From NCBI GenBank assembly GCA_030615175.1, contig JAUWZX010000003.1:1-52178 (forward strand): a stretch of 52,178 nucleotides of DNA. Direction: 5' to 3'. The number at the start of each line of letters is the position of its first letter. The stretch's first letter is position 1. Below the pieces are notes generated by a model. That model saw only the letters and a program-made list of their open reading frames with translations. It did no database searches and had not been told where the DNA came from. Of this stretch, positions 13,118-45,390 are shown piece after piece. Origin of the DNA: Candidatus Parvarchaeota archaeon (GTDB taxonomy: Archaea > Nanobdellota > Nanobdellia > WJKC01). The position numbers were made by a program, and so were the translations under genes.

Positions 13118-16100
13118 TTAAAATATGCCTATTATCAACTGCCAGAAGAACATCCAAATATTTGTGAAGAAGTCTATTATTGCTTTTGACATTTCTTCTA
13201 ATCCAGGTATTGTTATTGGGGTTATCACTGCTCTTTTGTATATTTTTATTTTAATGCTTTCTCCAACATCTAGGACTCCTAAAGTAATTACTAGTGTTTC
13301 CACTTCATCTATTTCTTCGCAGGTGAATTCTATTGTGTTGACATCTATAATTAGTCTTTCTGTGTACTCGTTAACTTTTGCTACGTAATCAACTAGATTA
13401 CAGTCTTTTTCCTCGTATTCCCATAATAGTTCTGTTAGTGGTACGTAAGCTATACTAGTGACTTCTGCCTCTTGCACGTTGAACTCGGTGTTGTTAAATC
13501 GTAGTTTATAAGCTGGTCTTGGCAGGTTGTACGTTGCTGTTGGCGTTTTATAATTTAACCTGAAGTCTTTGGTTTCCCCCGCTAGTATTGTGCCTAAGTT
13601 AACGCTTAATGTTCCTTGCTCCAGCCCATAGTCAGTTATTGTCTTATTATCCTCATCTAGTAATTTTATTTCCTCGCCGTACCCGATTCTTATGTCTTTG
13701 TAAATATCTACTGTTATGTTTTCTGAAGCGTAATTAGTTAGTCTTATTGTTATGTTAACGTCTGCTAGTTCGTTCACGTAGAATTCTTCTTGGTAGTGGT
13801 ATGCTAATTCTGCGAATACTGGTGGCGTGTAGAAGGTGATGTTATGATGATTGTACGATCTTGGTTGAATATTTTCATCCTCTATGCTTATGTAAGGTCC
13901 ATATAAATCCCATAATAGTTCTTCTCCTACTTCATCGTATAGAATGTTAGTTGCTTCTGGACTTATTCTGAATTTATCAGTTATGGACCTTGTTACTATG
14001 TTTGGATTATAGAATCTACATTCATACTTCCAGTATACTGCTTCACTTACGCCTATCTTTGTTCTTATGTGTTGTTTAGGACAGTCCCCGGCCACACTTA
14101 ATGAACAGTTCTCCCAGTTTCTTGCCTCGTTTTTGCATTGAGTTAATATTGGATCACCAACTAGGGCTGTTATGTAAAATTCGCTTGATTGATTCAGTGA
14201 TGGTTCATACCACGTTATCCTATCTGTCCTGCCATTACCGTTAGTATCCTCTTTTAGTACATTGTAATTCTTATTGGTTGTTACATCAATCCATACTCCA
14301 CTAATCTTCTTATATAAGTATGGTATCACTATTGATTCATTGACGCTTGTGTAAACCTTAACATTAGCGTATATTGGTTCTACTGGACCTGACAAGTTAA
14401 CATACTTAGTATAATGAGTTAAGTTTACAATAAAGCTTGTCGTTATGTTTGGCGCCGTGGTGTTATAAGTTACGTTGAATCCTATTTCTTGTCCCGCAGT
14501 CATTGATGACTTATTCCACTTAAAATAACGCTCTGAAGCATTTACTTCTTGTGGAGTTATTACTTCGGTGTCAGTTGTTATATTAATTGTTGATGGATTA
14601 GTGCTTGTAGGTATTGTTAATTGTCCTGTAACATTATAGTAAGTGATTGCTGCGGTATTATCCCAGAATACTTGCCTAGAGTAATTAACTTCTTTGTTAA
14701 TCTCTATTGCCCCCAAAACTAATGAACCAATTATTTCATTTACTGCTGGCATCGTATAATTAGTTACCGCTATATAAGTTCCTGATGCCACTACATCGAA
14801 TAGTACGCTTGTACCATTTCCTGACTCCATTACTGCTTCAGCAGGTATCTCCGTGAATGTTACATTAACATTATCATAACCCACTAGTGTGTCTGTGTTA
14901 GTACCGTTTATTTTTGCCTCAAATCTTGCTCTGGGGCCAACTATTATTGTAAGGTTTTGTGCTTGTATTTCTGGTTTTTTTGTTATCACATTGGTTTTAT
15001 TGCTGACTACTTCTCTCGTATCATCTGTTCCTGTTCCTGATGCAGGTATTGATGGTATGTATTGTATTCCTGTTATCGTGCAAGTCCATCCACTTCTACA
15101 CATTGCAGAAGCCGATGTATTATTGTATGCAACGTTTGTGAAACTTATGTTTAATGAATTACTTGCTCTTCCCTTGCCATGAATCCATGCTAGTCCTCCT
15201 GCGTAAGTTGTTTCTGTTACGTATTGCTGCCAGTCTGTTCCTGTTGTTTCCGTAAGCCAGTCTCCAGTGTCAGAGGCATTCCATTCAAAAGTATTGTTTA
15301 TGTTTCTTGTTCCTGTACAGTAATCACACACCGCTTCACCATACAGTAATGAAACTTCCCATGGCACGTCTGTGAAGTTATAGTTTGCAGTTCCATTAAC
15401 TAGCCTTACTATACCTTGATGAGTCATATTTTGCTGGTAACTCTTGTTTTCCTCCCAGTTATGAATTGTCTCATTAATCCAGTCACCAGTGTCAGAGGCG
15501 TTGAATGCGAAGTCACCGATATAGAAGCCCCTTAAGTCAGTGCAGTAATCACAAACGGTTTCATTTGTTGGTAGTGAGACAGTCCAATTAACATCAGTGA
15601 AATTATAGTCAGGATTAGTTCCGTTGATTAATCTTAGTAATCCTTGAGAACTAAGATTATGACTGTAACTATTGTTTTCTTCCCATGCTTGAATAGTTTC
15701 GTTAATCCAATCTCCTGTATCTGAAGCATTCCACTCGAAGTCTCCTACATTAACATTCATAGTATCTGTACAATAGTCACAGACTGTTTCATTGACTGGT
15801 AATGATACGCTGAAATTAACATCAGTGAAGTCCCTGCCAGTGTTAGTGCCATTCACTTTCCTCTTAATTCCTTGGTGAGTTAAGTTATGACTGTAAGTAG
15901 CATTCTCCGCCCAATTATGGACTGTCTCGTTAATCCAATCATAATAACAAGCAGCTACCGTGGTATTCTGACCTGAATTCCATGAAGTGCCAGGCACCCT
16001 AAGATTACCATAAGTAAAGTTACCATAACCTCCCTTGAATGGAGTTATCTCCCAATTAACAATGGACAGGTTTAGTTCATAATCACTAGTTAAGGTGATT

Positions 16101-19084
16101 GTAGTATTCACTGGTTGATAACTTAGATTAATGTTGCCAATGCTTTGAATCCAAGAAGTATTAGTGAAGCTAATCGTGGTATTATAATTGAATGGACTCT
16201 TAGAAGTGCTTGAAATATTACCATAAGTGGTTCCGTAATAATTAGGTAACTCCAAGTAAGCATTAACACTCCAATAGTGAGTGCCGTTAGGGAAGCAAGC
16301 CCAGTACTTAGGCGTGACTCCGAAATCATTAGGAATATTAGATTCCCATGTCCACGTCTCAGAAATATTTAATTGATTATTAGTATCACTTATGGCACTT
16401 GAGTATAATCCCCAAACTTCTTCACTAGTTAAAGGCCTGTCATAGATTCTTACATCATCAATAGTGCCATTAAGACCGGACCATATATCCCCACCACGCT
16501 TATACGCACCAATACTAAGAACATCAATTGGGTCAGTAGCACTTAGTAAAACATCAAACCATTTAGTCTTATTAATTGCACTCCCAGAAATATTTATCTC
16601 CATCTCAATTCCATTAAGATATACTTTTGGTGCTATACCATCATGCACTACTATTATGTGAGTCCAATTAGATATTTGGATTTTATTTGAAAAATCACGT
16701 AAACTAATAGTCCAGAATGAGATAACACTATCAGCACTCAAGTCAATAAGAAGATTGTCAATAGTTTGTTGGAATAACATTCTAAAACGAGTATTTTTTG
16801 CAATGGCATTCCTTCCAAAAGCTAAGTAAGATTGGGATGATGAACCAGAAACATTAGTTAATTTAGCCCATAATGAAACTGTTCCAGTAGTATCATCAGC
16901 GAATTCTGCTAAACTGGTAGTGTAAGCGTATTGACTGCCATTTAAACTTCCTATACTTCCATTAAAGTATACAGCGTTACCAAACCTCCCTGAAACCCAA
17001 GCATCATCAGTGGTGTTAGCCAATGTAAAGTTATTAAGATTAGAACCCGAATCATAAGCAGTGCTTCCTGAAGTTTCATCTAGTCGCCAGTAATTCTGAT
17101 AATCATTAACTTCACCAACATTACTCCTATCTATTGACTCTAAAGGTTTAAGACTCAAGTTAGCGAAAGTCTCTGCAAAGCTTGCATCTTGTGTTACGTT
17201 CCAAAAAGTCGCTGAATCATCACCATCAAGGGTGTCAGGAAGTCCATCTGTGTCGACTTTAATCCAGTCTATATGTAAAGAAATATTAATAGTATCAACA
17301 TTCGCTATTATACTTATAGCATTACTTTCTGAAGTATCAGGCACATAAGTTGGATTGCTTGTTGAATTACAAGCACCCACAAAAATCCCATCAACGTACC
17401 AATTAGCATAAGTATCATTTTCCCACATTAAAGTAATGTTGTGCCATCTGTTAAGCCAGTCATTATCTACTGTGCCATCCTCAATCGTATCAAGGTAAGT
17501 TCCTGCTAAACCATCAATTAATCCACCCTGTGCCGAACTATTAAAACATCTTCCTTGAACATAACCATCACCCGCTGCTCCCGCATACGTGAAAATAATA
17601 AAGTTAGTGTAAGGGGGAGCACCACCAGGAAGTCCAACCGAGAGTGTTGCATCATAACCTTGATTTGAATAATTAACGAAATTAACTCGCCAAGTCACAT
17701 TAAAATGGGTGCTTCTATTAACGTAAATTGAGAGTATATCACCAGTTGACATATTACTTGTGCCATCACCTAAGTCAGCAATAATTGGGCTGCCAGTCCA
17801 TAAATCAGAATTATATAAATCACCGAAATCATCATAAGTTGACTGAATCATTTGGCTTGAATCATAAGAGGTACGTTCTCCAGTAAAATTCTTATCAGTA
17901 TTAGTGCTCGTGTCAATATCCATTAAAACACCCTTAATGGCAGTTCTCGTTAATTCATCATCATAATTATATATGTCCTGATGAGTATCTGCGGAGTAGC
18001 CCTCTGTTCTATTTTTTGTTGTGAACCCTTGAATTAAAGTAACATTACCCCCATATGATACTTGAGTAGCAATACTTGAAGGATAAAATGTTTGACGAGG
18101 AACTTCGATAGTGTAATTAGATACTGTACGATTACTGAAATAAACGTATTCTAACCAATCGCCTGGTTGATACCATATTGCAACATAAAAAACTGTCCCA
18201 ATACCGGTTACTAATTTAAAATCTTGAATCCAAAAAGAGTTTCCAGTAGATATTGTGTAATTAACTAGCGTGTAATTATTTGTTTCAACATCACTATAAT
18301 TAACTTGTATTATTGTTTTATCAATCGTGTCTTCCATTATCTTAATATTATTCCATCCCTGTTGAGTAGTTGTGCCACCACCCGCCCAATTCACAACATC
18401 ATACAACTTTGTTATCCTTGAGTAATCACTCAAACTATTATTATAAGCCCATATCTCTTGAAAAGTTCCATTAGTTAATACGAGATTAATTAATCCATTA
18501 CTAATATTATACTGCGTTGTCGTATTAGAGATGACCACTATTGATTGATCGCCAATTCTTAGTTTTGCTTTACTAGGATTAATAACATTTAATATTATTG
18601 ATTCTCCATCGAAGGCGTTAACTTCGCTCTTAGCATCAATTAAACCCGCACCCTCATCAAGGCTTGTAATACTGACTTTACTGCTTAAGCTATTGCCAAT
18701 CTTGCTTAATTCAGCGTTAATATCATCAAGAGAATATTGAAAGTCCTTATAAGTAGTGGTGATGATTGGGTTCTTAGTGTCTTCAACCATTATACAATTC
18801 TTACCTATTGGGCTACCATTATCATCAAAAACATCATGACACTCCTCCCTTAATGGGTAAGTAATCACTTCAACTTCCTTAATATAATACTTAGGCACTA
18901 ACTGGAATTCATTGATTCCCTTAGTTACCCTATCAGGCTTAATAACGTCAAAATAAGAGAAAGGGCCATCATGCTGAATCACATGCCAAGCCAAGTATTC
19001 GCCAGTGGTTAAATCAAGACCTGCAAAGGATAAGCTAATTGAAATTAAAGTTATTAAGCCCAGAATAAGTAATTTATTATTCAT
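13118..19084 (-). CDS. giant surface protein (about 1988 aa) with LamG/concanavalin domains
   Basis: Likely start MNNKLLILG (signal peptide) at 19084 rather than 19213; YWRLDE...GTIDDVRIYDRPL LamG motif; hydrophobic C-terminus. Confidence 0.85.
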   Translation of the reverse strand: MNNKLLILGLITLISISLSFAGLDLTTGEYLAWHVIQHDGPFSYFDVIKPDRVTKGINEFQLVPKYYIKEVEVITYPLREECHDVFDDNGSPIGKNCIMVEDTKNPIITTTYKDFQYSLDDINAELSKIGNSLSSKVSITSLDEGAGLIDAKSEVNAFDGESIILNVINPSKAKLRIGDQSIVVISNTTTQYNISNGLINLVLTNGTFQEIWAYNNSLSDYSRITKLYDVVNWAGGGTTTQQGWNNIKIMEDTIDKTIIQVNYSDVETNNYTLVNYTISTGNSFWIQDFKLVTGIGTVFYVAIWYQPGDWLEYVYFSNRTVSNYTIEVPRQTFYPSSIATQVSYGGNVTLIQGFTTKNRTEGYSADTHQDIYNYDDELTRTAIKGVLMDIDTSTNTDKNFTGERTSYDSSQMIQSTYDDFGDLYNSDLWTGSPIIADLGDGTSNMSTGDILSIYVNRSTHFNVTWRVNFVNYSNQGYDATLSVGLPGGAPPYTNFIIFTYAGAAGDGYVQGRCFNSSAQGGLIDGLAGTYLDTIEDGTVDNDWLNRWHNITLMWENDTYANWYVDGIFVGACNSTSNPTYVPDTSESNAISIIANVDTINISLHIDWIKVDTDGLPDTLDGDDSATFWNVTQDASFAETFANLSLKPLESIDRSNVGEVNDYQNYWRLDETSGSTAYDSGSNLNNFTLANTTDDAWVSGRFGNAVYFNGSIGSLNGSQYAYTTSLAEFADDTTGTVSLWAKLTNVSGSSSQSYLAFGRNAIAKNTRFRMLFQQTIDNLLIDLSADSVISFWTISLRDFSNKIQISNWTHIIVVHDGIAPKVYLNGIEMEINISGSAINKTKWFDVLLSATDPIDVLSIGAYKRGGDIWSGLNGTIDDVRIYDRPLTSEEVWGLYSSAISDTNNQLNISETWTWESNIPNDFGVTPKYWACFPNGTHYWSVNAYLELPNYYGTTYGNISSTSKSPFNYNTTISFTNTSWIQSIGNINLSYQPVNTTITLTSDYELNLSIVNWEITPFKGGYGNFTYGNLRVPGTSWNSGQNTTVAACYYDWINETVHNWAENATYSHNLTHQGIKRKVNGTNTGRDFTDVNFSVSLPVNETVCDYCTDTMNVNVGDFEWNASDTGDWINETIQAWEENNSYSHNLSSQGLLRLINGTNPDYNFTDVNWTVSLPTNETVCDYCTDLRGFYIGDFAFNASDTGDWINETIHNWEENKSYQQNMTHQGIVRLVNGTANYNFTDVPWEVSLLYGEAVCDYCTGTRNINNTFEWNASDTGDWLTETTGTDWQQYVTETTYAGGLAWIHGKGRASNSLNISFTNVAYNNTSASAMCRSGWTCTITGIQYIPSIPASGTGTDDTREVVSNKTNVITKKPEIQAQNLTIIVGPRARFEAKINGTNTDTLVGYDNVNVTFTEIPAEAVMESGNGTSVLFDVVASGTYIAVTNYTMPAVNEIIGSLVLGAIEINKEVNYSRQVFWDNTAAITYYNVTGQLTIPTSTNPSTINITTDTEVITPQEVNASERYFKWNKSSMTAGQEIGFNVTYNTTAPNITTSFIVNLTHYTKYVNLSGPVEPIYANVKVYTSVNESIVIPYLYKKISGVWIDVTTNKNYNVLKEDTNGNGRTDRITWYEPSLNQSSEFYITALVGDPILTQCKNEARNWENCSLSVAGDCPKQHIRTKIGVSEAVYWKYECRFYNPNIVTRSITDKFRISPEATNILYDEVGEELLWDLYGPYISIEDENIQPRSYNHHNITFYTPPVFAELAYHYQEEFYVNELADVNITIRLTNYASENITVDIYKDIRIGYGEEIKLLDEDNKTITDYGLEQGTLSVNLGTILAGETKDFRLNYKTPTATYNLPRPAYKLRFNNTEFNVQEAEVTSIAYVPLTELLWEYEEKDCNLVDYVAKVNEYTERLIIDVNTIEFTCEEIDEVETLVITLGVLDVGESIKIKIYKRAVITPITIPGLEEMSKAIIDFFTNIWMFFWQLIIGIF
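15263..15940 (-). repeat. three intragenic 74-76 aa repeats
   Basis: DWINET...NLTHQG...CDYCT...NASDTG units at spacings of 228, 228 and 222 nt. Confidence 0.85.
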
Positions 19085-19206
19085 TAATTCATAAATTAAA
19101 CACTCATAGTATTTAATTGTTACTTTCAACGCCAAAACCCCATCTCCTCTCTCGTTAATAACGATTGGAAATGTATAAATATTATCACGAACTTCAAAAA
19201 ACTCAA

Positions 19207-20067
19207 ATGGCATTCAAAAAAGGGAACATTCCATGGAATAAAGACAAGCCTCATACTGAAGTAACTAAGAAGAAACTGAGGGAGAACCATTGGACAAAAA
19301 ATGAAAAGATTAAAGATGATGTAATGCAAAGGATGATTAAAAGCAAGAATGAATTTTATAAAACAGATAAAGGAAAGAAATTAAAAAAATCCCTTAGTGA
19401 ATTAAATAAAGGAGAAAATAATCCACATTATGGCAAACCACGTTCTGAAAAAACAAAGGAAAAAATAAGTAAAGCAAACAGTGGTGAAAATAATGGAATG
19501 TATGGGAAAAAACCGTGGAATAAGAATAAGAAATGGCCAGAGATAAAAGAATGGCTTGGCGAATACGAATTTAAAAAAGGTAATAAATCTTGGAATGATG
19601 GATTATCTATGGCAATAGATGAAAGAGTTAAAAATAATGTAGAAAGTATGAAGAAAACTAGGAATACTAAAAAATGGAAAGAAACAGCTGGAAAAGAAAT
19701 GGGGCTGAAAATAAGTAAAGCGAACAGTGGCGAAAATGGCCCTAACTGGCAAGGAGGGATTTCTTTTGAGCCTTATGGCCCTGAATTTAATAAAAGATTA
19801 AAGCAGAAGATTAAAGAAAGAGATGATTATACTTGCCAGTTATGTGGTAATAGAATTTTAGTATTTTCTAAGAAAAGACATCTTACAGTCCATCATATCA
19901 ATTATAATAAAAAGGATTCAAAAGATAAAAATTTAATTACATTATGTAATTTCTGTAATATTTCAGTTAATAAGGATAGAGAAGATTGGACTAATTACTT
20001 TCAAGAGAAGATTAATCAAATTATTAGTGCTAATGCAGATGTTGGAGCAATAAATGATATTGTGTAG
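19207..20067 (+). CDS. free-standing homing endonuclease (NUMOD3-like repeats plus HNH)
   Basis: FKKGNIPWNK, SEKTKEKISKA, GENN.YGK repeats; RDDYTCQLCG...VHHINY...NLITLCNFC; likely ATG at 19207. Confidence 0.85.
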   Translation: MAFKKGNIPWNKDKPHTEVTKKKLRENHWTKNEKIKDDVMQRMIKSKNEFYKTDKGKKLKKSLSELNKGENNPHYGKPRSEKTKEKISKANSGENNGMYGKKPWNKNKKWPEIKEWLGEYEFKKGNKSWNDGLSMAIDERVKNNVESMKKTRNTKKWKETAGKEMGLKISKANSGENGPNWQGGISFEPYGPEFNKRLKQKIKERDDYTCQLCGNRILVFSKKRHLTVHHINYNKKDSKDKNLITLCNFCNISVNKDREDWTNYFQEKINQIISANADVGAINDIV

Positions 20068-21431: not shown

Positions 21432-22793
21432 TCACTTCCGTCTCCTCACCAATGCGTAAGTTATTAGGCCTATTATGGCAAGGATTATGATGATGATTAT
21501 GATGAACGTGGTTGTTGTTATGCACGTGCCGAGTATGTTTATTTCTCCTTCAGTGCATGCTGTTGGGTTATCATCTACACAATTTGTTATTGGGTAGTGG
21601 TAGCATAATTCGCCTACGCATTCATCTGTCGTGCATGCGTCACTGTCATCGCAGTCAGAGTTAGTTCTGCATTCAGGCGTGGGTTCTATGCACTTAATGC
21701 TTATTGAGTCGCATCCGTAAGGGCATGCTTTTCTTTGATAATTGCATTGTGGCACTCCACTAATTACTGTGCATTCACCGTTAATTAATAAGTAGTATCC
21801 TTCTGCGCTACACTTGTCTGGGCATTGCATTCCGTCGCATGGGTTCGGGCAGTCACTTGGACAGGTTAAGTAGTTCTCATCTGCCTCGCAATCACCATTA
21901 CCACATTCAGTTATCGTGCAGTAAGGTATGTCTTCAAGAGTGCAGGTTCCCCATCTGCATATGTATCTCTTGCATCCTACTTCGCCTGAGCATGTGCTGT
22001 GTACGCCTTCTAGTGGCGTGTAAACGCATTCGCAGGTGGCGTAGTTTACTGTTTCATAGGTGCATGGGTTCCCGTCATCGCATCCGCTTGGTGTTTTAGT
22101 GCATACTGGTGCCGGGCAGTCTGCTGGGCAGTTTTCATAGGTTTCTCCTTCCCCGCATATTCCGTTATCGCAGTATTCTACTGGCGTTATGCATGTTGGC
22201 ATGGCTCTACAGTATTCTATCATTAGATCACATTCTTCTGGGCATGTTCGTGATATGTAAATTTCGTCTAAGCCGCACATTTTTTCTGCGCAGGTGCCTA
22301 GAACCCAGTCCGAGCATAAGCAGTCAATGTCGCAGTAGTATAATTCCAAGTGTTTTACTTCAGTATAGCGTGTGATGTAAGCTTCTCCTGGAACTAAGAA
22401 AATTTCTTCTTCGAAGTAGTAGTTTTCATCGAATACGACTAGGGCGCATCCTCCCCTGACTGTTGATGGGCAAGTAATTATTTTTCTGTCGTAGGGTGGA
22501 ATTGATCCCCATTCTTCAGGGAAGTCACTGCATAGGAATCCTCCAACGACTGTTAGTGGGAATACTCTGGTCCATGTTAGAGTGTCTTCTATGTACTTGC
22601 CGAAGCATGTGACGTGTGGCACCCCATCCTTTATTTCGTAGTGTTCTCTTATCGTGCAACCGCCTGATAGTACTGGTCTAGTGACTGCTTTAATCACGAA
22701 GTACCCTACCATTAATGACGCTATGAGTATTAATGTTGTGAATATTACTTTTCCTCTGGTGGTTTTAAGCCATTTTGGTATTTCTATTTTCAT
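21432..22793 (-). CDS. cysteine-rich membrane-anchored protein
   Basis: N- and C-terminal TM helices; CxNGxCExxE...CPxDC and CDDxxxCT repeats. Confidence 0.8.
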   Translation of the reverse strand: MKIEIPKWLKTTRGKVIFTTLILIASLMVGYFVIKAVTRPVLSGGCTIREHYEIKDGVPHVTCFGKYIEDTLTWTRVFPLTVVGGFLCSDFPEEWGSIPPYDRKIITCPSTVRGGCALVVFDENYYFEEEIFLVPGEAYITRYTEVKHLELYYCDIDCLCSDWVLGTCAEKMCGLDEIYISRTCPEECDLMIEYCRAMPTCITPVEYCDNGICGEGETYENCPADCPAPVCTKTPSGCDDGNPCTYETVNYATCECVYTPLEGVHSTCSGEVGCKRYICRWGTCTLEDIPYCTITECGNGDCEADENYLTCPSDCPNPCDGMQCPDKCSAEGYYLLINGECTVISGVPQCNYQRKACPYGCDSISIKCIEPTPECRTNSDCDDSDACTTDECVGELCYHYPITNCVDDNPTACTEGEINILGTCITTTTFIIIIIIILAIIGLITYALVRRRK

Positions 22794-22921: not shown

Positions 22922-24799
22922 TCATTTACGGCCTCCTTTCCTAGCTTCTTTTATTTCTTGCCATATTATGTACCCTATTCCGAATGCTGTTGATGGGCCA
23001 ATAATCCATAATATTATTCCGAATCCTCCTGTTCCTATTAATCCTAGGATGATTATTAATAGCCAGTTAGTGAGTACGAACCATACAACGTATCCCGCTA
23101 GTGCACCCACTAAGGCTCCGATGATGTATCCTTCAACTCCTAGTTTTGATAGCCTGCCAATTAGTAATGCAATTATTGAACCAATGATTATTGCTAATAT
23201 TATCTCGTTAGGTATTGGTGTCCTGCTACTGCACACTCCGTTAATATCTGTTAGTCCTGGACAGCAGGCCTTGAATATTGTTGGGGTTTCACCATCTTGA
23301 GCGCAAGCGATTACTCTGCTCTTGCAGTATGCTTCTCCTGTTTCCCTGTAACCGCATACCTCGTCTGGCTCGCATATATCTACTAGGTCATCTGCGCTTC
23401 CGAATGGATTGCATTTATAAACCTCGTTTCCCACGCATACCCACCTGTTTGCTTGGCATACTCCTAATGGATTGCATTTTGCGGTGAATGTTCTTGAGTC
23501 TGTTCCGCCTACTGATGAGGCCGTTACCGTGCAGGTTTGCTCTGCGTAAGCTATGGTATCGCAGTATATTGGCAGGTTGAATGTGTAATCCATTCCAGGG
23601 TCTATTGTTTGTGATTGAGTTGCTCCGGCCCTGAATGGTTTTGGACAGGTTATGTAAGCGTCAAAGCCTTCTCTTTCATCGCCTATGTTCTTAACTATTG
23701 CTTTAACTTTTGCTTCTTCTTCACCTGAAATCATTGTGTCCATGTAAGCGCTTGTTACTTGTGGCACTCCTATTGGCTGGTATATTCCTAGCCAGTCCGC
23801 TCTTACGTAGAATATGTATGTTGGGATGCTTATGAAAGTGCTTAATTCTCTTATTACTACTCCCTCTGTTAGGCTTGCTGGGCTTTCAATGCCCCCAAAT
23901 GGTATTGGAGTCATTGCAGTATCCGCTGCCGTGTTAGTGCCATCGTAGGATTCTTGTATTCCCGCCCTGGTTATTGGTAATTCACCAATCTTCCCTATTA
24001 GTACATCGTATTTAGTTAAGTGATCTCTGTAGAAGTCATCGCTTATTATTCTCCAGTTGCCATCATAGGCTGATTTGTATGGGTCTTGGCTTGTGCAAGT
24101 TTCAGCTGTTGGTTTATAACCATCCCATTTAACGTAAACGTTATCCCTGAAGTCACCGTATGGCCCAACGTAGCCTCTTATGTCTGCATGAGTGTCGAAG
24201 TCTTTGCTGAATGTTTCAACGCCATTAGTGACGCTGATTGTTGACATCGTGTGTATTTGAGGGCTGTCAATGCTTCCTACTGGGTAATAAGTTATTTCTT
24301 CTATGCAGAAGCATGCTAGTTCAAGGTAGTATTTTCCTTGACCTATTAAGAATCCACTCACGCAGTGTTGTAGTGCTTCTTCTGTTGAAGGCACCCATCC
24401 GCAAAGCCATTCAACTTTGTTTAATTTAGTTATTGGCCTCCTAACTCTTTCTTTAAATATTATTGGGTATTCGCAGGTTTGCCGGCCGTAAGTAATATCT
24501 ATTTTGAAGTCTCTTTCCGCTGGTATTCCTGTTTCTTCATCTATCTCTGTTGAAGTAACGGTTCCAGTGGCGTATTGACTCATTCCTCCTTGACTAACGT
24601 ATAGTATCCATTGCTTGCCTGTGAAGAATGGGCTTGTTGAAACGAAATCAGCTTTGGTTAAGCTTAGTGTTGTGAATCCTGAATAACTTGATAGTAGTGA
24701 TGTGAAAGCGAATCTGGCTGGCGTAAAAATAATCATTAATGATACTGAAGCAACTAATGCTACTAGAATTAATACTTTACTCCTCTTCGTAATTATCAT
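22922..24799 (-). CDS. fsx1: archaeal fusexin (Fsx1/HAP2-like membrane fusogen)
   Basis: Colinear motifs matching Fsx1 as I recall it (TSPFFTG, VKWDG, NWRI, SLTEG..IPTYIFYVRA, PIGVPQV, VKNIGD, EVYKC..G..C..DE); three C-terminal TM helices. Confidence 0.75.
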   Translation of the reverse strand: MIITKRSKVLILVALVASVSLMIIFTPARFAFTSLLSSYSGFTTLSLTKADFVSTSPFFTGKQWILYVSQGGMSQYATGTVTSTEIDEETGIPAERDFKIDITYGRQTCEYPIIFKERVRRPITKLNKVEWLCGWVPSTEEALQHCVSGFLIGQGKYYLELACFCIEEITYYPVGSIDSPQIHTMSTISVTNGVETFSKDFDTHADIRGYVGPYGDFRDNVYVKWDGYKPTAETCTSQDPYKSAYDGNWRIISDDFYRDHLTKYDVLIGKIGELPITRAGIQESYDGTNTAADTAMTPIPFGGIESPASLTEGVVIRELSTFISIPTYIFYVRADWLGIYQPIGVPQVTSAYMDTMISGEEEAKVKAIVKNIGDEREGFDAYITCPKPFRAGATQSQTIDPGMDYTFNLPIYCDTIAYAEQTCTVTASSVGGTDSRTFTAKCNPLGVCQANRWVCVGNEVYKCNPFGSADDLVDICEPDEVCGYRETGEAYCKSRVIACAQDGETPTIFKACCPGLTDINGVCSSRTPIPNEIILAIIIGSIIALLIGRLSKLGVEGYIIGALVGALAGYVVWFVLTNWLLIIILGLIGTGGFGIILWIIGPSTAFGIGYIIWQEIKEARKGGRK

Positions 24800-27880: not shown

Positions 27881-28402
27881 CTATTTTATTACTTCAATTT
27901 CGAATCTGCCGTAGCGAGGCCTGTCATCACCAATGCCTTTGAACCTGCCCGCACTTTTTAGTATTTCTAGTGCGACTTCAATGTCAAGATTAGGGTCTAT
28001 TGAAGTTAGCTCGAACTCGGCGCTCCAGTTATCAAAGCGTGGTCTCCACCTTAATATCCTGCTCCTCTGTATTACTACTGCCGCCTCATCAATCTCGTAT
28101 TTCTGTGGATTTATCTTTATCTCTTGCGGTTCAATGAAGCATGCTGCCTTAATGATTTCCTTATAAGACTTCTTCCCTTCATACTTGAAGTCAACTGCTG
28201 CCTTTATCATCGCTGCTTCTACTTGCCTTGCCGGTATGTAAAGCATTCCTTCTTTATTCCTGTACGCTGCTTTCTCCGCTTCCTCTTTAGGGTCATAAGT
28301 TTTCTTTTTCTTCTTAGTTCCTTTCTGATCTTCCATTACGAACCTATGCTGTAAGTAAGGCCTTAAACCTTTTATTCTCACTTTAATTCTCTGTTCCTGC
28401 AT
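27881..28402 (-). CDS. stand-alone Cas7/RAMP-like protein
   Basis: N-terminal strand IKVRIKGLRPYLQH, LYIPARQVEAAM, RPRFDNWSAEFEL, C-terminal glycine loop AGRFKGIGDDRPRYGRF; no other cas genes or CRISPR array. Confidence 0.8.
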   Translation of the reverse strand: MQEQRIKVRIKGLRPYLQHRFVMEDQKGTKKKKKTYDPKEEAEKAAYRNKEGMLYIPARQVEAAMIKAAVDFKYEGKKSYKEIIKAACFIEPQEIKINPQKYEIDEAAVVIQRSRILRWRPRFDNWSAEFELTSIDPNLDIEVALEILKSAGRFKGIGDDRPRYGRFEIEVIK

Positions 28403-28706
28403 CACGTATTACCTCCCTTATTTCATTAATGCATTCTTGAGTGTTATTCTCAACTTGCTTGCTAGGGAATCTTATTACTTTGTACCCTAACTTCTTTAAA
28501 GCATAATCCCTACGTCTGTCTTTAATTAATCTTTTACCTCGATGCCAGTGCTCGCCATCAACTTCAATGTCGATTAATAATCCTCGAATCTTGAAATCAA
28601 GGATTAACTTACTAGGCACTGGATATTGTTCAATGGCATCAATCCCTGCTTCCTTCATAGCCTTCTTTAAAACCCTCTCAGGCTTAGTTAAATACCTGCC
28701 CCTCAT
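28383..28706 (-). CDS. DUF559/Vsr-like endonuclease
   Basis: EQY...LDF...IEVDGEHWH...DRRRD..L...GYKVIRF. Confidence 0.85.
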   Translation of the reverse strand: MRGRYLTKPERVLKKAMKEAGIDAIEQYPVPSKLILDFKIRGLLIDIEVDGEHWHRGKRLIKDRRRDYALKKLGYKVIRFPSKQVENNTQECINEIREVIRDAGTEN

Positions 28707-28720
28707 CTTTTATCACTTAT

Positions 28721-28996
28721 TTACCAGTTCACGAACTCGTCTTTTTCTTCTTTGTCTATTTCTTCTTTTAATGTTTCCATGTGGGTTTCTAATACTGGTT
28801 TTGGACCATAAGCCATCATTCTTCCTTCAACGAATTCAAAGTCTGGTTCTCCTGTGTCTGCGAAGAAGTTTCCAACAAAGCTAACATTCCCTTCGTGTTT
28901 TTTAACCCATTTACTAATGGCATTCATCATATCTTTCAATTCTTTACTGTGTTTTTGTTCTTTCTCAGTTCCGTTTTCTTTAGTTTTTTCACTCAT
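28721..28996 (-). CDS. hypothetical protein in the RAMP operon
   Basis: Tightly packed between the small regulator and DUF559. Confidence 0.7.
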   Translation of the reverse strand: MSEKTKENGTEKEQKHSKELKDMMNAISKWVKKHEGNVSFVGNFFADTGEPDFEFVEGRMMAYGPKPVLETHMETLKEEIDKEEKDEFVNW

Positions 28997-29000
28997 TTCA

Positions 29001-29120
29001 TTATTCCTCCTTTTTACAGTCCGCTATTTCTAGTATGAATTCACGCCATGTTCTTTCCCCTTTCTTCTTTTTTAGGCATTTGAATTCCTTATCCGTGAAT
29101 ATTTCATTAACAGTTCTCAT
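29001..29120 (-). CDS. small ribbon-helix-helix-like regulator (39 aa)
   Basis: MRTVNEIFTDKEFKCLKKKKGERTWREFILE; ATG about 25 nt after TTTATAAA, so probably leaderless. Confidence 0.55.
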   Translation of the reverse strand: MRTVNEIFTDKEFKCLKKKKGERTWREFILEIADCKKEE

Positions 29121-29145
29121 TACTTTCTTTCTAAGAATGAAAGAG

Positions 29146-29190
29146 TTTATAAATCTTTCTACTCCCCACAGAATAATAAAGTATTTAAAT
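29146..29190. promoter_or_regulatory. back-to-back archaeal TATA promoters
   Basis: TTTATAAA 29146-53 is spaced for the minus-strand ATG at 29120; TATTTAAAT 29182-90 is spaced for a plus-strand start near 29213. Confidence 0.6.
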
Positions 29191-29212
29191 AATAAAATAA
29201 CCATTAAGTAAT

Positions 29213-29341
29213 GGGTTGAAAAACCCTCTATGAGTTATGTTATGTTGAGGTATGTTACATTGAGTCGAGTTGGGAATGTGTTACGTTGAGTTTGGTTGTG
29301 TTAAGTTGAGGAAAAGTTAGGAGGGGCATCCCTCCTGACTT
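29213..29341 (+). ncRNA. putative guide-like RNA: 5' GAAA hairpin, (GTT-NN) pentamer array, 3' hairpin
   Basis: GGGTT-GAAA-AACCC; 11 exact GTT among 15 slots at 5-nt period; AAGTTAGGAGGG-GCAT-CCCTCCTGACTT. Confidence 0.75.
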
Positions 29342-29528: not shown

Positions 29529-31121
29529 CTATACTTTTTTTGATATATAATAGTATATTCCTGCAAAGAATAATATGATTGCTATTAGTGTGATTGCTTG
29601 GAATAGGATTAGTGGTGGCGCTGGTATGTAATGAATTTCTGTTTCCTTTTTCTTAGTGACTTTCTTAATTGTTACTAATTCCCTGATTGTTTCCCTGACT
29701 TCGAAGATGCCTGTTATTGAGTCGCTGCTTGCACTGTTATTCTTTGATGTTATGTTGAAGTTGTAAACGCCTACGTAAACTAGTGTGTCCGTGTTGATTG
29801 AGTGGCTGGTTCTTGATCCTGTGATGATGTTCGTGTCATCGTAGCTTATTAAGTTATTCCATACTCTGATTCTAGTGTCGGCTAGGAAGTTAGTGTCCCA
29901 TGTGAATGTGTTGTACTCTCCTCCTAGTATGTAGGTTGAGTATGTGCTGTTCTCTATTTCTACAGCATATATTCTAGTGTAGTAAGTGGTGATGTTGTAT
30001 AGTTCTGGGCTTCCATTGTCAGTGTAGAAGTCTGCTCTGTACTGGAAGTATCTATTATTACTGACTGTTAAGTTCTGTGGTGCTTTAATATATGTTTCAT
30101 TCCATGAGTCTCCAGTGCAGGTTGCGTCGTCGCAACTCCTGACTGTCAGGTTTAGTTTCATTATTCCTCTTTCATACAGGTTTAGTGCTTCTGTTGCGGT
30201 TAATTGCCTGTTGAATAATGCGAATTCATCTATTGTTCCGTTAAAGCTTCTTAAACCGTCGCCTCTTGAGCCTATCATGTAGTCTTCGGCTGCGTCTGAC
30301 AGTCTTGCACCGATTGGTGCTTGTACTTGTGGTATTGACCTACTCGCACCGTTCAAGTATAAGTGCGGGCTATTTAGTATTGAGCTACTATTGTAATCTA
30401 TTACTATATGGGTCCACTCGTTTAAGGGTATTATTAATCCAGTAGTCCATATTCCTGCTTGAGTGAAGAAGTACCTGACGAATGATAATTTAACGTGGGT
30501 TCCATTATCCTCTCTGACGTATAATATGCTGTAACCGTCTTTATCCATTATTCTGCCCGTGTCTGATTCCCCGTCACTCCCTGGGTATATCCATACGCTT
30601 AGGGTTGCGAATTCAATCCATACGTCGTCTAGCGTGGCATTGCTTTTTAAATTAATGTAGTCGCCGTCTCCATCAAAGTCTAGTGCAGTGTTTAATTTGC
30701 CTGTGGCGTTGTAGGTTACGTCGCCTCCGGTTGTTCCATTGTTTCCTTCACCTGAGTAATCAATTATTACCCCGCTTGCTTCGTTCAGGTGCATTAGTAA
30801 TACATTATCTGACATGTTCATCGGGTTAACTATGTAGTCCTCGCTTGACTTATTGTGCGGTAATTCGTAGCCGTAGCCACTCCACCACGTAATATTATTC
30901 CATTTTGATGTACCGCTTGAATCTAACACCTTGCTCGTGTAATTGCCTGAACTATAAGATAAGTTTAATTGAACTGCCCTTAGAGTGTCATTGAAGAAGG
31001 TGTTATTATATATCCCTTCATTAAAGGCCGATTCATTATTCACTTGCCAGATTGAGTCTGCATGAGCAATAGTTATGATTAATAATGAAGTAATTACTGT
31101 TAGTATTGATTTCTTATTCAT
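29529..31121 (-). CDS. LamG-domain surface protein with C-terminal TM helix
   Basis: Signal peptide; LDFDGDGDYI...TLSVWI...WTHIV...FNGTIDEFALFNRQLT. Confidence 0.85.
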   Translation of the reverse strand: MNKKSILTVITSLLIITIAHADSIWQVNNESAFNEGIYNNTFFNDTLRAVQLNLSYSSGNYTSKVLDSSGTSKWNNITWWSGYGYELPHNKSSEDYIVNPMNMSDNVLLMHLNEASGVIIDYSGEGNNGTTGGDVTYNATGKLNTALDFDGDGDYINLKSNATLDDVWIEFATLSVWIYPGSDGESDTGRIMDKDGYSILYVREDNGTHVKLSFVRYFFTQAGIWTTGLIIPLNEWTHIVIDYNSSSILNSPHLYLNGASRSIPQVQAPIGARLSDAAEDYMIGSRGDGLRSFNGTIDEFALFNRQLTATEALNLYERGIMKLNLTVRSCDDATCTGDSWNETYIKAPQNLTVSNNRYFQYRADFYTDNGSPELYNITTYYTRIYAVEIENSTYSTYILGGEYNTFTWDTNFLADTRIRVWNNLISYDDTNIITGSRTSHSINTDTLVYVGVYNFNITSKNNSASSDSITGIFEVRETIRELVTIKKVTKKKETEIHYIPAPPLILFQAITLIAIILFFAGIYYYISKKV

Positions 31122-32320
31122 TATTTCTTTCTTACTCTTTTATAGTATATTAATATTCCTGAACCTGAGATTAGTATTATCGCCACGAATGCTATCATTA
31201 ATAATAGTGTTGGAGGTAGTATTGGTGGTGCTTCGTAATTACATAATCCGCTAGTGATGTTGCAGCCTTGCTCGCATGGTTCTTGGAAGTAATAGATTAT
31301 TTCACCAGTCATTGAATTGCATCTGCCACTGTAATAATACGTTGAGTCCTCGCATTTTGTGCCTGCGAATTTTATTGGAGTGTTAATGCATGCTAAGTTT
31401 GGATCACATGAGTCCCTAGTGCATAAGTTATTGTCATCGCAATTAACTTGTTGGAAGGTTATTTCTCCTGTGGTTGGATTGCAGGTTGGGTTGTAATTAT
31501 ACATTAAGTTGTCGCAGTAGGGTATTCCTGCTTCATCTATTAGTGTGTAAGTGCATGATGTTCCTACGCATTTATCAATGGTGCAGGGGTTATTGTCTTC
31601 GCATTTAGCGTCAGTATATGATATTTTTTGGGAGTCTGGATTACAGTATGTTTCAGTTCTTAGTATTGTGTTGCTTGCGCAGTAAGATGTTAATGTTATT
31701 CCTACGCAGAGGTCTGGGCAGTCGCTTGGGCAGGTAGAGTATACTTCTCCTGCCTCGCATATTCCATTACCGCAACAGGGTGTTACTGTTATGCATCCTT
31801 TAATGTCATCGCATTCCTCGCAGATTCCACAATCTTGTGTTGACCAATAACTGCATCCCCAATTTATTTTATCATAATAAGGATCAGTGTACCAGTGTGG
31901 ATAATGTTTTCTCGTTAAGTATCCATAATTATCGCATATTGGATTATAGTAGAATTTATTGTTGTAACAGAAGGTTGGGCAGTCAACGTCTTTGCAAGGA
32001 TTAACGCATTTACCATACTCGCACACAACCTCTATTACTCCCCACTCACCTGCGGGTTCCCACTCGCAACTGAATCCGCCTAAGTACTCTTGCCCTGGAC
32101 TCCAGTCGTAAGTGAAGTACGCTTCCACTGCCGCTCCAGTGTCAGCGTCAGGCCAGCATCTTCCAGTGTACCTCGTTATTGTTATTCCTTGTTCTTGAAT
32201 GACTGCTAATGGAATGGGCCTTAACGCTAGTAAGTAAATGATTAATATTGCTACTGGCACGACTATTGCCACAGTTATTAATGCTTTCTGCCTAGTAGTT
32301 AATTTCATCTCATTAATCAC
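31121..32320 (-). CDS. cysteine-rich membrane-anchored protein, paralogous in style to 21432-22793
   Basis: CGNGICEAGE..TCPSDC, CEDNNPCTIDKC, CDDNNLCTRDSC; TM helices at both ends. Confidence 0.8.
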   Translation of the reverse strand: MINEMKLTTRQKALITVAIVVPVAILIIYLLALRPIPLAVIQEQGITITRYTGRCWPDADTGAAVEAYFTYDWSPGQEYLGGFSCEWEPAGEWGVIEVVCEYGKCVNPCKDVDCPTFCYNNKFYYNPICDNYGYLTRKHYPHWYTDPYYDKINWGCSYWSTQDCGICEECDDIKGCITVTPCCGNGICEAGEVYSTCPSDCPDLCVGITLTSYCASNTILRTETYCNPDSQKISYTDAKCEDNNPCTIDKCVGTSCTYTLIDEAGIPYCDNLMYNYNPTCNPTTGEITFQQVNCDDNNLCTRDSCDPNLACINTPIKFAGTKCEDSTYYYSGRCNSMTGEIIYYFQEPCEQGCNITSGLCNYEAPPILPPTLLLMIAFVAIILISGSGILIYYKRVRKK

Positions 32321-33626: not shown

Positions 33627-35339
33627 TCATTCGAAGAACTCCTTGCTTATTATTAATTCATTGCCTTCTATTTCTATTAGTCCATTCCTTCTTAGTTCTG
33701 ATATATAAGTATTGAATGTCCCGCCTGTTGGCGTGAATCCCGTTTCATAGCCTATTTCTTCTTTACTTATTGAGTGCGGGTAGTGTTCATAAATTACTTC
33801 TAGTATTCTTCCAGCTCCTTTTCTGAACTTGGTTTTCCATAATTCTAATAGTTCTCTTCCTGTTGGTATTCTTGGTATTTCATTTACATTTCTTATCCCT
33901 TCTTCAGTTATTGTTAATTCATGCATCCCAGTTATCCATCCATTCCTTTTTAATTCTGAGATGTAAGTGTTAAATGTTCCTCCTTTTACTGAGAAGCCTG
34001 ATAGCGTTGCCAGTCTTTGTTTTGTTAATGTGTTGGCAGCCGCTAACCACCCCAGCATCCTCATTGCTCCAGCCCTTAATGGTTTATCTTCATCGTATAA
34101 TGGTTCTGCTAATTCTTTGCATCTATCCCATGCTTTCTTTACTCTTGGCTCTTCACGTTTTCTCTTTATTTTTTCAATAAATTCTTTTGGGTCACTTACA
34201 ACTAGTGGTGGTGTTGGAGTGATTGGCTTTAATGGTTTTGTTTCAGGTACGCTTACGCAGATAGTTTTTATTCTACCTATTGCCGTCCTTAATTTTCTTA
34301 TTTCTATTTCATATTGTTTTTCTATTTTCTTGTATTGTATTTGTGCTTCCCTTATTCCTTGTTGCTTTACCATGATTAATTGTTTTTCATCAATTCTTGC
34401 TTCCGGTTTTTGTCTTTTAAGTATTGTTAGTTCTCTTTTTAATTGCATTATTTTATTCTTCATATCTTGTTTAGTTCTTAACTCCTCTTCTGATTCTTTT
34501 TCTAAGTCAATTAATTTCTTTAGTATTCTCTTTATGTTCTTTGGCGTTCCTGGCACTACTGTTAATTGTTGCCCTCCGAGTCTTGGATGGGTTGTCTTAA
34601 CTCCTCCAACCTTAAATTTAACTACTTCTTTGCTTATTGCTGGTCCGAAACCGCAGAATTCTCCTGCCCCTAAGTTTCTTAAACCCCTCATTTGCTCTTT
34701 ACTAGTGAATCCGAGAATCTCTGATGCACGTTTCATGTCAACATCTAGTCCTGTGCGCCCTATTAAGATATTATTAGCTTCCGCAGCAGCGTCTTTATTC
34801 AGTTTTGATAATCTTTGGGTGCAAATTATTCCACAGAATCCCCTCTTCCTACCCCTAGTCATTAAGTCAATAACTGAGTTTGATGATTCTGACTTTCCTG
34901 ACTGTGGAGCGAACTGGTGGCATTCATCTATTATTATTAGTGCTGGATGCCATAACTTCTTTGGCGATTCAATTAGTGAATCAAGGAATCTTTTAACGTA
35001 TAATATTCTTTCATGCTTCTTTAATTCTGATACATCAATTATTGTTGAAGTTCTTAATTCAAGTATCTTCCTTGCTAGTAGTTGAGCTGTTCTTATGTTC
35101 GCTGGTATCTCTCCTTCCTTGCCTACGAGTAAGTAATCATATTTCTCTCTTAGTGAGCCGAATTCTCCTTCTAAGTCAATTACTATTTGTTGAACTTTTC
35201 CATGAGTCTGTTCTAATATCCTTCTTATAGTCCATGACTTGCCACCGCCTGAGTTAGCGGTGATTAGCATTCTTGTTTCAATTAAGTTAAGCAGGTTTAT
35301 CTCTAATTTCTCGCCTGTTTTTGTCTTGCCAATAATCAT
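33627..35339 (-). CDS. HerA/FtsK-like (DUF87) ATPase with tandem C-terminal wHTH-like domains
   Basis: ANSGGGKS, IIIDECH, RGRKRG, CTQR; duplicated GGTFNTYISEL.RNG.I. Confidence 0.85.
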   Translation of the reverse strand: MIIGKTKTGEKLEINLLNLIETRMLITANSGGGKSWTIRRILEQTHGKVQQIVIDLEGEFGSLREKYDYLLVGKEGEIPANIRTAQLLARKILELRTSTIIDVSELKKHERILYVKRFLDSLIESPKKLWHPALIIIDECHQFAPQSGKSESSNSVIDLMTRGRKRGFCGIICTQRLSKLNKDAAAEANNILIGRTGLDVDMKRASEILGFTSKEQMRGLRNLGAGEFCGFGPAISKEVVKFKVGGVKTTHPRLGGQQLTVVPGTPKNIKRILKKLIDLEKESEEELRTKQDMKNKIMQLKRELTILKRQKPEARIDEKQLIMVKQQGIREAQIQYKKIEKQYEIEIRKLRTAIGRIKTICVSVPETKPLKPITPTPPLVVSDPKEFIEKIKRKREEPRVKKAWDRCKELAEPLYDEDKPLRAGAMRMLGWLAAANTLTKQRLATLSGFSVKGGTFNTYISELKRNGWITGMHELTITEEGIRNVNEIPRIPTGRELLELWKTKFRKGAGRILEVIYEHYPHSISKEEIGYETGFTPTGGTFNTYISELRRNGLIEIEGNELIISKEFFE

Positions 35340-44022: not shown

Positions 44023-45390
44023 TTATTTCACCGGTTCCGCTTTTCTTAGTTCTTCTATTTCCTTGTTTATTTCCTCGCTTTTCTTCATCATTGCTCTTCT
44101 AATCACTTCTTCTGGCATTAACTTGTCTATTTCTTCTTTTGTTTTAATTAATTTCTTCATTAGTATTTCCTTAACTATTGATGTGTTAAGTGTTGGTGCG
44201 TAAAGGGTTTGCCCTAATTCTGATACTTCTTTTAACAATCCTTTACTAACCAGTAATTTTAAGTATTTACGGGATTGCCTGTTACCTACTGGTGTTTGCC
44301 GGCCATAATAACGCATTCCAGCCTCATAGTGTTTGTGTATTGTGTTTGCGTTAGGTACTATATAATAATCCTTATCTGGTTTACAATCACTTATGTCGCT
44401 TTGTTTTGCTTCATTCTTCCATAAGTCATAAGTATTGCAAGTGAATACGTAATACCATTGCACTTGTTTAATAAAATTATTAAGTCTTTGCCTGATTCTT
44501 TGATCTTCTATTCTTTTCTTTGCTTTATTAAAGTGTTTTAATTCTACGGTCTTGCTTTTATTCCTTTCAGCGATTAATGCGCTTTCATACAGTGATTCTA
44601 TCATTATTCTGGCATCACCACCTTGTTTTTCAGCGTATTCAGCCATCTTAGTTATTACTTCTTCACTAATGGTTCTTGGGCGGAATGCTTTCCTTGCTCT
44701 TGCTTTACCTATATCCTTTAATTGTTCTTTAGTATATTGTGGGAAGAATGTTCTGTGATTACCAAATGATTCTATTGTTCCTGTTTGTAATCTTTTTATG
44801 AAGTTAATGTCATTAGCCACGCATATTAATCCAATGTAACCCTCCTTTAGTGAGTCTTTGTTGAATTTTGTGAATTGTGAGCCTTCCTTCGCCCTAACTA
44901 TTGAACGGATTATCCAGTCTATATCACTGTCAGTTTTGAGTTTGTCAACTTCATCTAAAATGATAATTGAGTATTTATCTTCTCCATCTATTTTTTTTAA
45001 GAATTTAGAGAATAGTGTTGCTTGATCTTGCCCTGAACAATTTATTCCTAACTTCCTGCATAACATCCTAACTATTGCTGCCGAAGTGTTTGATCTTGAA
45101 CAAGTAATGAAGAATAAATTTATGTTTTCGTCTTTTTTTAGTTTAATGCAGTCCTTATCGAAGTCTCTTAGTACATAGTATAGGCTTGCGGTTTTTCCAA
45201 CTCCGCTTGCGCCGTATATTATCATATTCCCTGCGGGCCTATCTATTAGTGTTGGACCTATTATATTTACTATTTCTGTGATTAATTCTTTTCTGTGTAG
45301 GAATTGTTCTGGTATGTATTCAAGACCTAGTATTTCCGAGTCCTTAATTATCCTTGTCCGGTTTAATACTATTGGAGTGAATAATGACAT
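44023..45390 (-). CDS. cdc6: Orc1/Cdc6 replication initiator
   Basis: LEYIPEQFLHR, GASGVGKT, IILDEVD, FPQYTKEQL, GDAR, C-terminal wHTH. Confidence 0.92.
   Translation of the reverse strand: MSLFTPIVLNRTRIIKDSEILGLEYIPEQFLHRKELITEIVNIIGPTLIDRPAGNMIIYGASGVGKTASLYYVLRDFDKDCIKLKKDENINLFFITCSRSNTSAAIVRMLCRKLGINCSGQDQATLFSKFLKKIDGEDKYSIIILDEVDKLKTDSDIDWIIRSIVRAKEGSQFTKFNKDSLKEGYIGLICVANDINFIKRLQTGTIESFGNHRTFFPQYTKEQLKDIGKARARKAFRPRTISEEVITKMAEYAEKQGGDARIMIESLYESALIAERNKSKTVELKHFNKAKKRIEDQRIRQRLNNFIKQVQWYYVFTCNTYDLWKNEAKQSDISDCKPDKDYYIVPNANTIHKHYEAGMRYYGRQTPVGNRQSRKYLKLLVSKGLLKEVSELGQTLYAPTLNTSIVKEILMKKLIKTKEEIDKLMPEEVIRRAMMKKSEEINKEIEELRKAEPVK

Follow-up and report, generated by a model that had tools for sequence, protein, structure and literature searches.

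A probable VIPR locus on an archaeal contig, with a GUU-scaffolded guide RNA and a candidate Vsr-like nuclease partner

The window that we analyzed, 52,178 nt of DNA assigned to a Candidatus Parvarchaeota archaeon, is an entire 52-kb contig of a 1.0-Mb assembly. Four minus-strand open reading frames (ORFs) of 39, 91, 107, and 173 aa span positions 29120 to 27881, and a 129-nt unit diverges from them on the plus strand (Table 1). The ORF calls and translations confirmed the gene series that a first-pass annotation had read from the letters. The start of the 173-aa ORF, vipr, overlaps the stop of the DUF559 gene by 20 nt, and a GGAGG element lies within the DUF559 tail. Back-to-back TATA boxes had been proposed for the intervening region; two TATA-like octamers are indeed present, but they are weak evidence because they are near-palindromic and lie in AT-rich DNA. 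The proposed RHH-like nature of the 39-aa ORF likewise stands as a lead only (atlas match of 0.89 to DUF7557 and DUF5371), and the 91-aa protein gave atlas matches of 0.84 at most, to unnamed viral clusters. Neither of these two genes had a homolog in 240 related loci, so they probably lie outside the system, the 91-aa gene as a passenger; it is possible that the 39-aa protein autoregulates the divergent promoters. We found no CRISPR-type repeat or Rfam match within the window, and no class 1 CRISPR-Cas array or multi-gene effector module; cas1 was not found in the source genome (87% complete), in agreement with the earlier remark that cas genes and a CRISPR array are absent. The locus is a minimal pair of vipr and candidate vap with neither a CRISPR array nor a cas operon, as in VIPR systems.

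Table 1. Features of the locus, with positions in the 52,178-nt window
Feature	Position	Strand or region	Description
vipr	27881-28402	-	173-aa ORF, single-RRM RAMP, Vipr family; LYIP and GIGDDRPRYGRF motifs
DUF559 / Vsr-like (EDxHD) nuclease, candidate vap effector	28383-28706	-	107 aa; Pfam DUF559 1e-10
91-aa hypothetical protein	28721-28996	-	same transcription unit as vipr
39-aa RHH-like ORF	29001-29120	-	translation and atlas leads
two TATA-like octamers	29184-29191, 29146-29153	divergent promoter region	pattern match only
vrRNA 5' hairpin	29213-29226	+	5 bp, GAAA loop
vrRNA repeat tract	29234-29309	+	15 GTT/NN units; NN, predicted guide
vrRNA 3' tail hairpin	29314-29341	+	12 bp, one U-G pair

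The AF2 model of the 173-aa protein (pLDDT of 89.7) aligned with Csm3 over 138 residues with a Z score of 11.2 and an rmsd of 2.7, and a Foldseek search with this model returned type VII Cas7 and Csm3 (E = 2e-6). The protein is also 28% identical to the Vipr of phage SUSP1 (E = 6e-21). Both the RAMP/Cas7-like fold and the kinship to VIPR systems that had been predicted for this ORF were therefore borne out: it encodes a single-RRM RAMP with a thumb and a G-loop, homologous to Vipr and accompanied by a pentamer vrRNA gene. Locus L059 is phage SUSP1 (100%), and its Vipr, used as the reference, fits 13 of the 14 residue numbers given in the cryo-EM preprint. Residue mapping equated H19, R120, D159, and R161 of the window Vipr with SUSP1 H17, R138, D177, and R179, and placed D160 where SUSP1 has W178, the residue whose side chain reportedly stacks on G at the second position of GGY (10.64898/2026.04.26.720927). 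No model in Pfam, NCBIfam, or PADLOC matched the 173-aa protein; PHROG 4652, annotated as of unknown function, did. From these similarities, we regard the locus as almost certainly a VIPR that uses the vrRNA described below.

The divergent plus-strand unit is the vrRNA gene of this Vipr. An RNA of ~130 nt with a hairpin-pentamer-hairpin layout had been proposed here, with GUU in place of GGY, and the DNA shows this layout: the repeat triplet is an exact GTT in 11 of the 15 units and GGT in one. One detail needed correction, since unit 9 (29274-29279) has 6 nt, which puts a tract that had been counted as regular out of phase. The window holds seven period-5 GTT links, whereas no triplet exceeded five in any of 100 simulated windows, and a four-unit pattern matched three times against a shuffle mean of 0.03 (0/100 shuffles). 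Folding energies of the tail hairpin favor the plus strand (-20.4 kcal/mol) over the minus strand (-15.7 kcal/mol) because its U-G pair forms only on the former, as the first reading had it; 0 of 200 shuffles were equally stable (z = -5.4). The unit thus has the form of a VIPR pentamer RNA gene (9-16 units of a fixed triplet plus NN, followed by a structured 3' tail), although not with the canonical GGY triplet. Since the VIPR definition admits "a related consensus" besides GGY (10.64898/2026.04.26.720920), we take the GTT triplet to mark a variant rather than an exclusion from VIPR.

The window's array is the single GTT/GGY-type run of at least five units in the source genome. Its NN pairs fit codon positions 1-2 of the sense strand best among the six registers compared. 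An NGT/TN register was judged unlikely because one base of the guide would then be constant, and because the GTT-type locus L002 decodes in GTT/NN. GNRA hairpins like the 5' one precede two arrays of L002; as a general vrRNA feature, such a hairpin was rejected, being found before only 11 of 267 arrays. The array is a lone one, divergent from vipr and ~830 nt distant, a layout shared by few relatives: in 73 of 77 close loci the arrays lie on the vipr strand only.

The 240 related loci were the best 80 each of 117 viral, at least 469 metagenome, and 82 genome candidates, and they encode 211 distinct Vipr proteins. Aenigmatarchaeota and Pacearchaeota assemblies were the closest named genomes among the matches listed, and only 1 of 60 related genomes held a Vipr homolog. 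Vipr representatives in all numbered 8663 at E = 0.001. Arrays of at least 8 units, mostly GGY, lay within 1.5 kb of 189 of the 211 distinct homologs, while 22 homologs with too few units were left out of the array counts; the window's own array stands outside the 189, as the caller missed it over the 6-nt unit. GTT or GNT arrays occurred at L002, L003, L006, L010, L112, L139, L154, L155, and L162, so that the expectation of pentamer arrays beside homologs came true, several of them GTT-type. We also observed TGT/NN-type arrays, in which the first G is relaxed, at L104, L115, L121, L128, L158, and other loci, mostly with Asn at the H17 position. H17N as the cause of this first-G loss (19/47 versus 8/131) was rejected when independent pairs gave it no support. 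In the nuclease-less GTT/GNT loci, an 89-aa gene directly follows vipr (L003:5527-5796 and the L002 group) and is possibly a further vap.

We compared the second scaffold base with the residue at the W178 position. Where this residue is non-aromatic, G occupied position 2 in fewer than 50% of units for 9 of 13 homologs; where it is aromatic (W, Y, F, or H), this held for 2 of 176. These counts exclude the window, which fits the pattern. The replacing residues were N, K, M, R, and S, and D in the window, whose Asp is the only one at this position among 195 fetched proteins (1/195). Four of the 13 non-aromatic homologs (L082, L024, L181, and L150) are exceptions that keep G at position 2 in at least 55% of units. 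Non-aromatic rows fall in several parts of a hand-picked 46-row tree, which holds all 13 of them and shows seven changes (L081, where no array was found, was not counted). Seven independent pairs on this tree comprised 4.6 that changed the same way, 0.0 opposite, and 2.4 unchanged (median p = 0.0625), and a 211-row fast tree yielded three supported pairs (p = 0.5). We therefore regard the covariation, once the tree is taken into account, as borderline and short of formal significance. A change of the W178-to-Asp type probably does explain the GUU scaffold. In satellites, lone GGY guides reportedly act as decoys (10.64898/2026.10.15.759431); that a reader of GUU might pass over them is a possible motive for the scaffold switch.

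The top fold match of the 107-aa DUF559 protein was the catalytic domain of I-Bth0305I (3R3P). D37, H55, and D63 align with I-Bth0305I D196, H213, and D222, and, together with E48 and D50, are invariant in a 36-row DUF559 alignment; the protein thus shows the Vsr-like EDxHD fold with its catalytic Asp, His, and Asp. Homologs of DUF559 occurred in 45 of the 240 loci, in every case co-oriented with vipr and no more than 400 nt away, either upstream or downstream, and none of the loci had one farther out (1.7 Mb of flank). Counted over distinct proteins and split by similarity band, a DUF559 gene accompanies vipr in 42/83 close, 1/29 intermediate, and 1/98 distant loci, or in 27/41, 1/23, and 1/84 of those with full flanks; the suggestion that homologs would keep DUF559 nearby therefore holds for the close group. 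Pairwise identities of Vipr and DUF559 were correlated (Spearman 0.72; 0/2000 permutations), which argues for long co-inheritance of the two proteins and not for a function. The window Vipr does not fall firmly inside the main DUF559-upstream clade of the 46-row tree. Another 20 of the 83 close loci have, in place of DUF559, an HNH-like gene (CxxC/HH, by eye), and no locus has both. This HNH-like partner, without a Pfam match, is found at L097:1041-1367 and 22 other loci and belongs to a sister group. The DUF559 protein is likely a true Vap.

Complex prediction with two Vipr copies and DUF559 scored 0.34, compared with 0.00 for the best control, with a pLDDT of 78 for the partner and at least 80% of contacts shared between runs. 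In a benchmark, 18 of 157 solved complexes passed at scores of 0.60 or below, as did both of the mismatched pairs that passed; the model thus weakly supports a Vipr-DUF559 complex, as most passes at scores this low are false for a pair that was not likely beforehand. We also came across a 279-aa DUF559-Vipr fusion (P0011) on a 95.6-kb contig. As a singleton (1/61) that may reflect an assembly or homopolymer slip, it was rejected as Rosetta-stone evidence.

We scanned 130 guides of close loci against the fetched DNA with a one-base skip. The guide L094:5560-5629, from a DUF559 locus, matched the vipr genes of L088:4694, L100:1133, and L134:404 at 27 of 28 positions, in the codons of the G-loop. 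It matched its own vipr at 23/28, the own gene differing at two Arg codons, and scored 18 under skips of 0 and 2. Matches of at least 80% were obtained for 5 of the first 110 guides; since 3 of the 110 reversed controls also reached this level, L094 is the sole clear case. The GTT-type guide L002:6153-6252, chosen by eye among 27 decoded guides, decodes to a DNA methyltransferase motif and matched a viral N6-methyltransferase gene (L356) at 34 of 40 positions, of which 20 were fixed by the search pattern and 14 of the 20 beyond it agreed; with the other half-pattern, matches reached only 21-23. These guides suggest that a one-base-skip code operates in close relatives of the window. The window's own guide, searched against its own genome and the fetched loci with skips of 0-3 and three readings of unit 9, reached 21-22/30 at best, versus 20-24 for shuffled guides. 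In five exact-pattern IMG/VR scans (171 loci), its best matches were 26, 25, and 23 of 32, which is chance level after 16-20 bases have been fixed, and 0 of 401 same-class genomes matched with three or fewer mismatches.

The tetranucleotide profile of the window correlates with that of the main contig at 0.34, compared with 0.93-0.98 for the other contigs, so the contig is foreign or mis-binned and its host uncertain. We observed a 625-aa fusexin 1 (Fsx1)-like membrane protein at 22922-24799 (minus strand), whose NCBIfam match (E = 3.4e-18, below cut-off) spans profile positions 5-565 of 610; phmmer found no match to it in the PDB. Fsx1 genes mark integrated mobile elements (PMC9259645). The contig also encodes a HerA-like ATPase (33627-35339), Orc1/Cdc6 (44023-45390), an MCM-like protein (779-1642), and a primase-like protein. 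From its gene content, it looks like a fusexin-bearing archaeal mobile element.

One of the closest described systems is VIPR type II of Escherichia phage SUSP1. The two share a small, lone RAMP with the H17/R138/D177/R179 residues kept, a pentamer guide of 15 units with a structured 3' tail, and a mobile-element setting without a CRISPR array or cas1; signs of the one-base-skip code come from close relatives of the window. As far as the preprint texts describe SUSP1 (10.64898/2026.04.26.720920, 10.64898/2026.04.26.720927), the window differs in its GUU rather than GGY scaffold, in Asp rather than W178, in a single divergent guide rather than four, in its plain tail hairpin and archaeal element, and in a Vsr-like nuclease partner instead of the DNA-binding Vap1. 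VIPR types III and V pair vipr with a predicted nuclease, and single-vrRNA systems are described as well (10.64898/2026.04.26.720920). That preprint's text names HNH only; the comparison is with its main text, and our locus may equal type V, while the HNH Vap of its fig. S21 may equal the HNH-like partner of the sister group. Types III and V reportedly reside in host defence islands, whereas the present system lies on a mobile element. There are also precedents for a Vipr fold accompanied by period-5 arrays whose triplet departs from GGY, namely YNNNG, NNNGG, and NNNNG (10.64898/2026.04.26.720920) and GAC/NN, CAC/NN, WGT/NN, and TGH/NN (10.64898/2026.10.21.760802). The passages on such arrays do not name GTT, although TTNNG fits a rotated YNNNG and fig. 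S10 may show it, and their text ties no protein residue to a scaffold change. Like I-Bth0305I (Vsr/EDxHD; PMC3239194; 3R3P), the DUF559 protein has the fold and catalytic D/H/D; unlike it, the protein is a stand-alone catalytic domain without NUMOD, and targeting would need the Vipr RNP. The RAMP fold with thumb and G-loop resembles the Csm3 and type VII Cas7 backbones; in contrast to class 1 CRISPR, there is no repeat-spacer array, Cas5, Cas6, Cas10, or Cas1, and the guide is non-contiguous. Archaeal-virus VIPRs, nuclease-bearing types III and V, single-guide systems, and non-GGY scaffolds thus already appear in the 2026 preprints. DUF559 does not occur in the text of 10.64898/2026.04.26.720920, of the genomic-model VIPR preprint, or of 10.64898/2026.10.15.759431, and our literature search returned no paper that connects VIPR with DUF559, or the scaffold with the W178 position. 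What appears to be new, going by these texts, is the covariation of the W178 position with the scaffold and the DUF559 partner; figures or supplements of the preprints may already hold a GTT logo or this nuclease type.

Taking as given by the sequences the Vipr membership, the vrRNA anatomy, the conserved pairing with an intact Vsr-like protein, and the one-base skip in close relatives, we lean toward a VIPR of an archaeal mobile element, with a GUU scaffold and a nuclease partner, aimed at competing elements. By analogy with SUSP1, Vipr would polymerize with one subunit per pentamer, burying each GUU, and the NN pairs would face double-stranded DNA with every third (wobble) base skipped, so that a 45-bp stretch of a rival element would be read two bases in three. 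The W178-to-Asp change would remodel the pocket of the second base such that U is accepted or preferred, setting the scaffold apart from the GGY guides of rivals. The DUF559 protein, as the Vap effector, would then nick or cut DNA at the filament-bound site, giving cleavage and not only silencing. We see the case for guide-directed cleavage as evenly poised. The most far-reaching form of the proposal is rather doubtful: a three-part RNA-guided DNA nuclease (a 173-aa Vipr, a 107-aa Vsr-like protein, and a ~130-nt guide) forming an undescribed archaeal-element VIPR subtype, in which one G-loop residue sets the scaffold and GGY-to-GUU orthogonality arose several times, possibly escaping decoys.

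The most serious alternative is a VIPR that silences without cutting, in which DUF559 is a real Vap but serves, like Vap1, as a helper that binds structures or mismatches, or confines its nicking to the acquisition or diversification of guides. Transcription was repressed by all VIPRs tested in 10.64898/2026.04.26.720920, Vsr-like folds can have non-catalytic roles (RAP-domain proteins were among the fold matches), and L094 tolerates a guide that matches its own vipr at 23/28. We nevertheless consider this alternative unlikely, given that the aligned DUF559 family shows no variation at its acidic and His catalytic residues, that DUF559 alternates with a second nuclease-like partner, and that nuclease Vaps are read as target-destroying in the same preprint.

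It is improbable that the locus is instead a decaying VIPR, a relic in which D160 is a loss-of-function change and GTT reflects drift under relaxed binding. The lone guide with its phase-shifting insertion in unit 9, the unique Asp, the atypical divergent layout, and the absence of a target for the guide in the genomes, loci, and IMG/VR data scanned would all fit such a relic; however, neither ORF is disrupted and each retains its key residues, both hairpins are intact, the array is nearly pure GTT with a non-random position 2, like those of L112, L139, and L162, and the NN content is still in the codon 1-2 register. More improbable still is that DUF559 is no more than a selfish nuclease hitch-hiking on the locus, its place next to vipr owed to the elements' common descent. 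Mobile DNA often carries small nucleases of the Vsr-like and HNH kinds, the contig itself has a NUMOD3-HNH gene, and plain linkage would also yield co-divergence. Against this, DUF559 stays adjacent and co-oriented on either side of vipr, even with arrays in between, and the other neighbors change; the 107-aa protein lacks the N-terminal DNA-binding domain of homing endonucleases; and DUF559 is present in only 2 of 127 distant loci.

VIPR is the proposed ancestor of class 1 CRISPR, and the VIPRs tested all silence. If the preferred reading of a nuclease-armed VIPR is true, Vipr and its 107-aa partner would rank with the most compact RNA-guided cutters, and the pairing could model how viral silencing gave way to destructive immunity. 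If a G-loop residue is linked to the second scaffold base, a single mutation would suffice to test the cryo-EM model, and orthogonal guides would come within reach; guide callers limited to GGY overlook part of the VIPR family. The fusexin-like gene on the same contig suggests that archaeal elements spreading through cell fusion compete by RNA-guided means.

Elsewhere on the element, we observed a second RNA-guided protein, encoded by a TnpB/Cas12f-like gene (8461-9579, plus strand). The minus strand also encodes two LamG surface proteins, of 2031 aa (13118-19213) and 530 aa (29529-31121), and two proteins with common cysteine-rich repeats (21432-22793 and 31121-32320); the LamG and cysteine-rich proteins may form an adhesion module around the fusexin-like gene.
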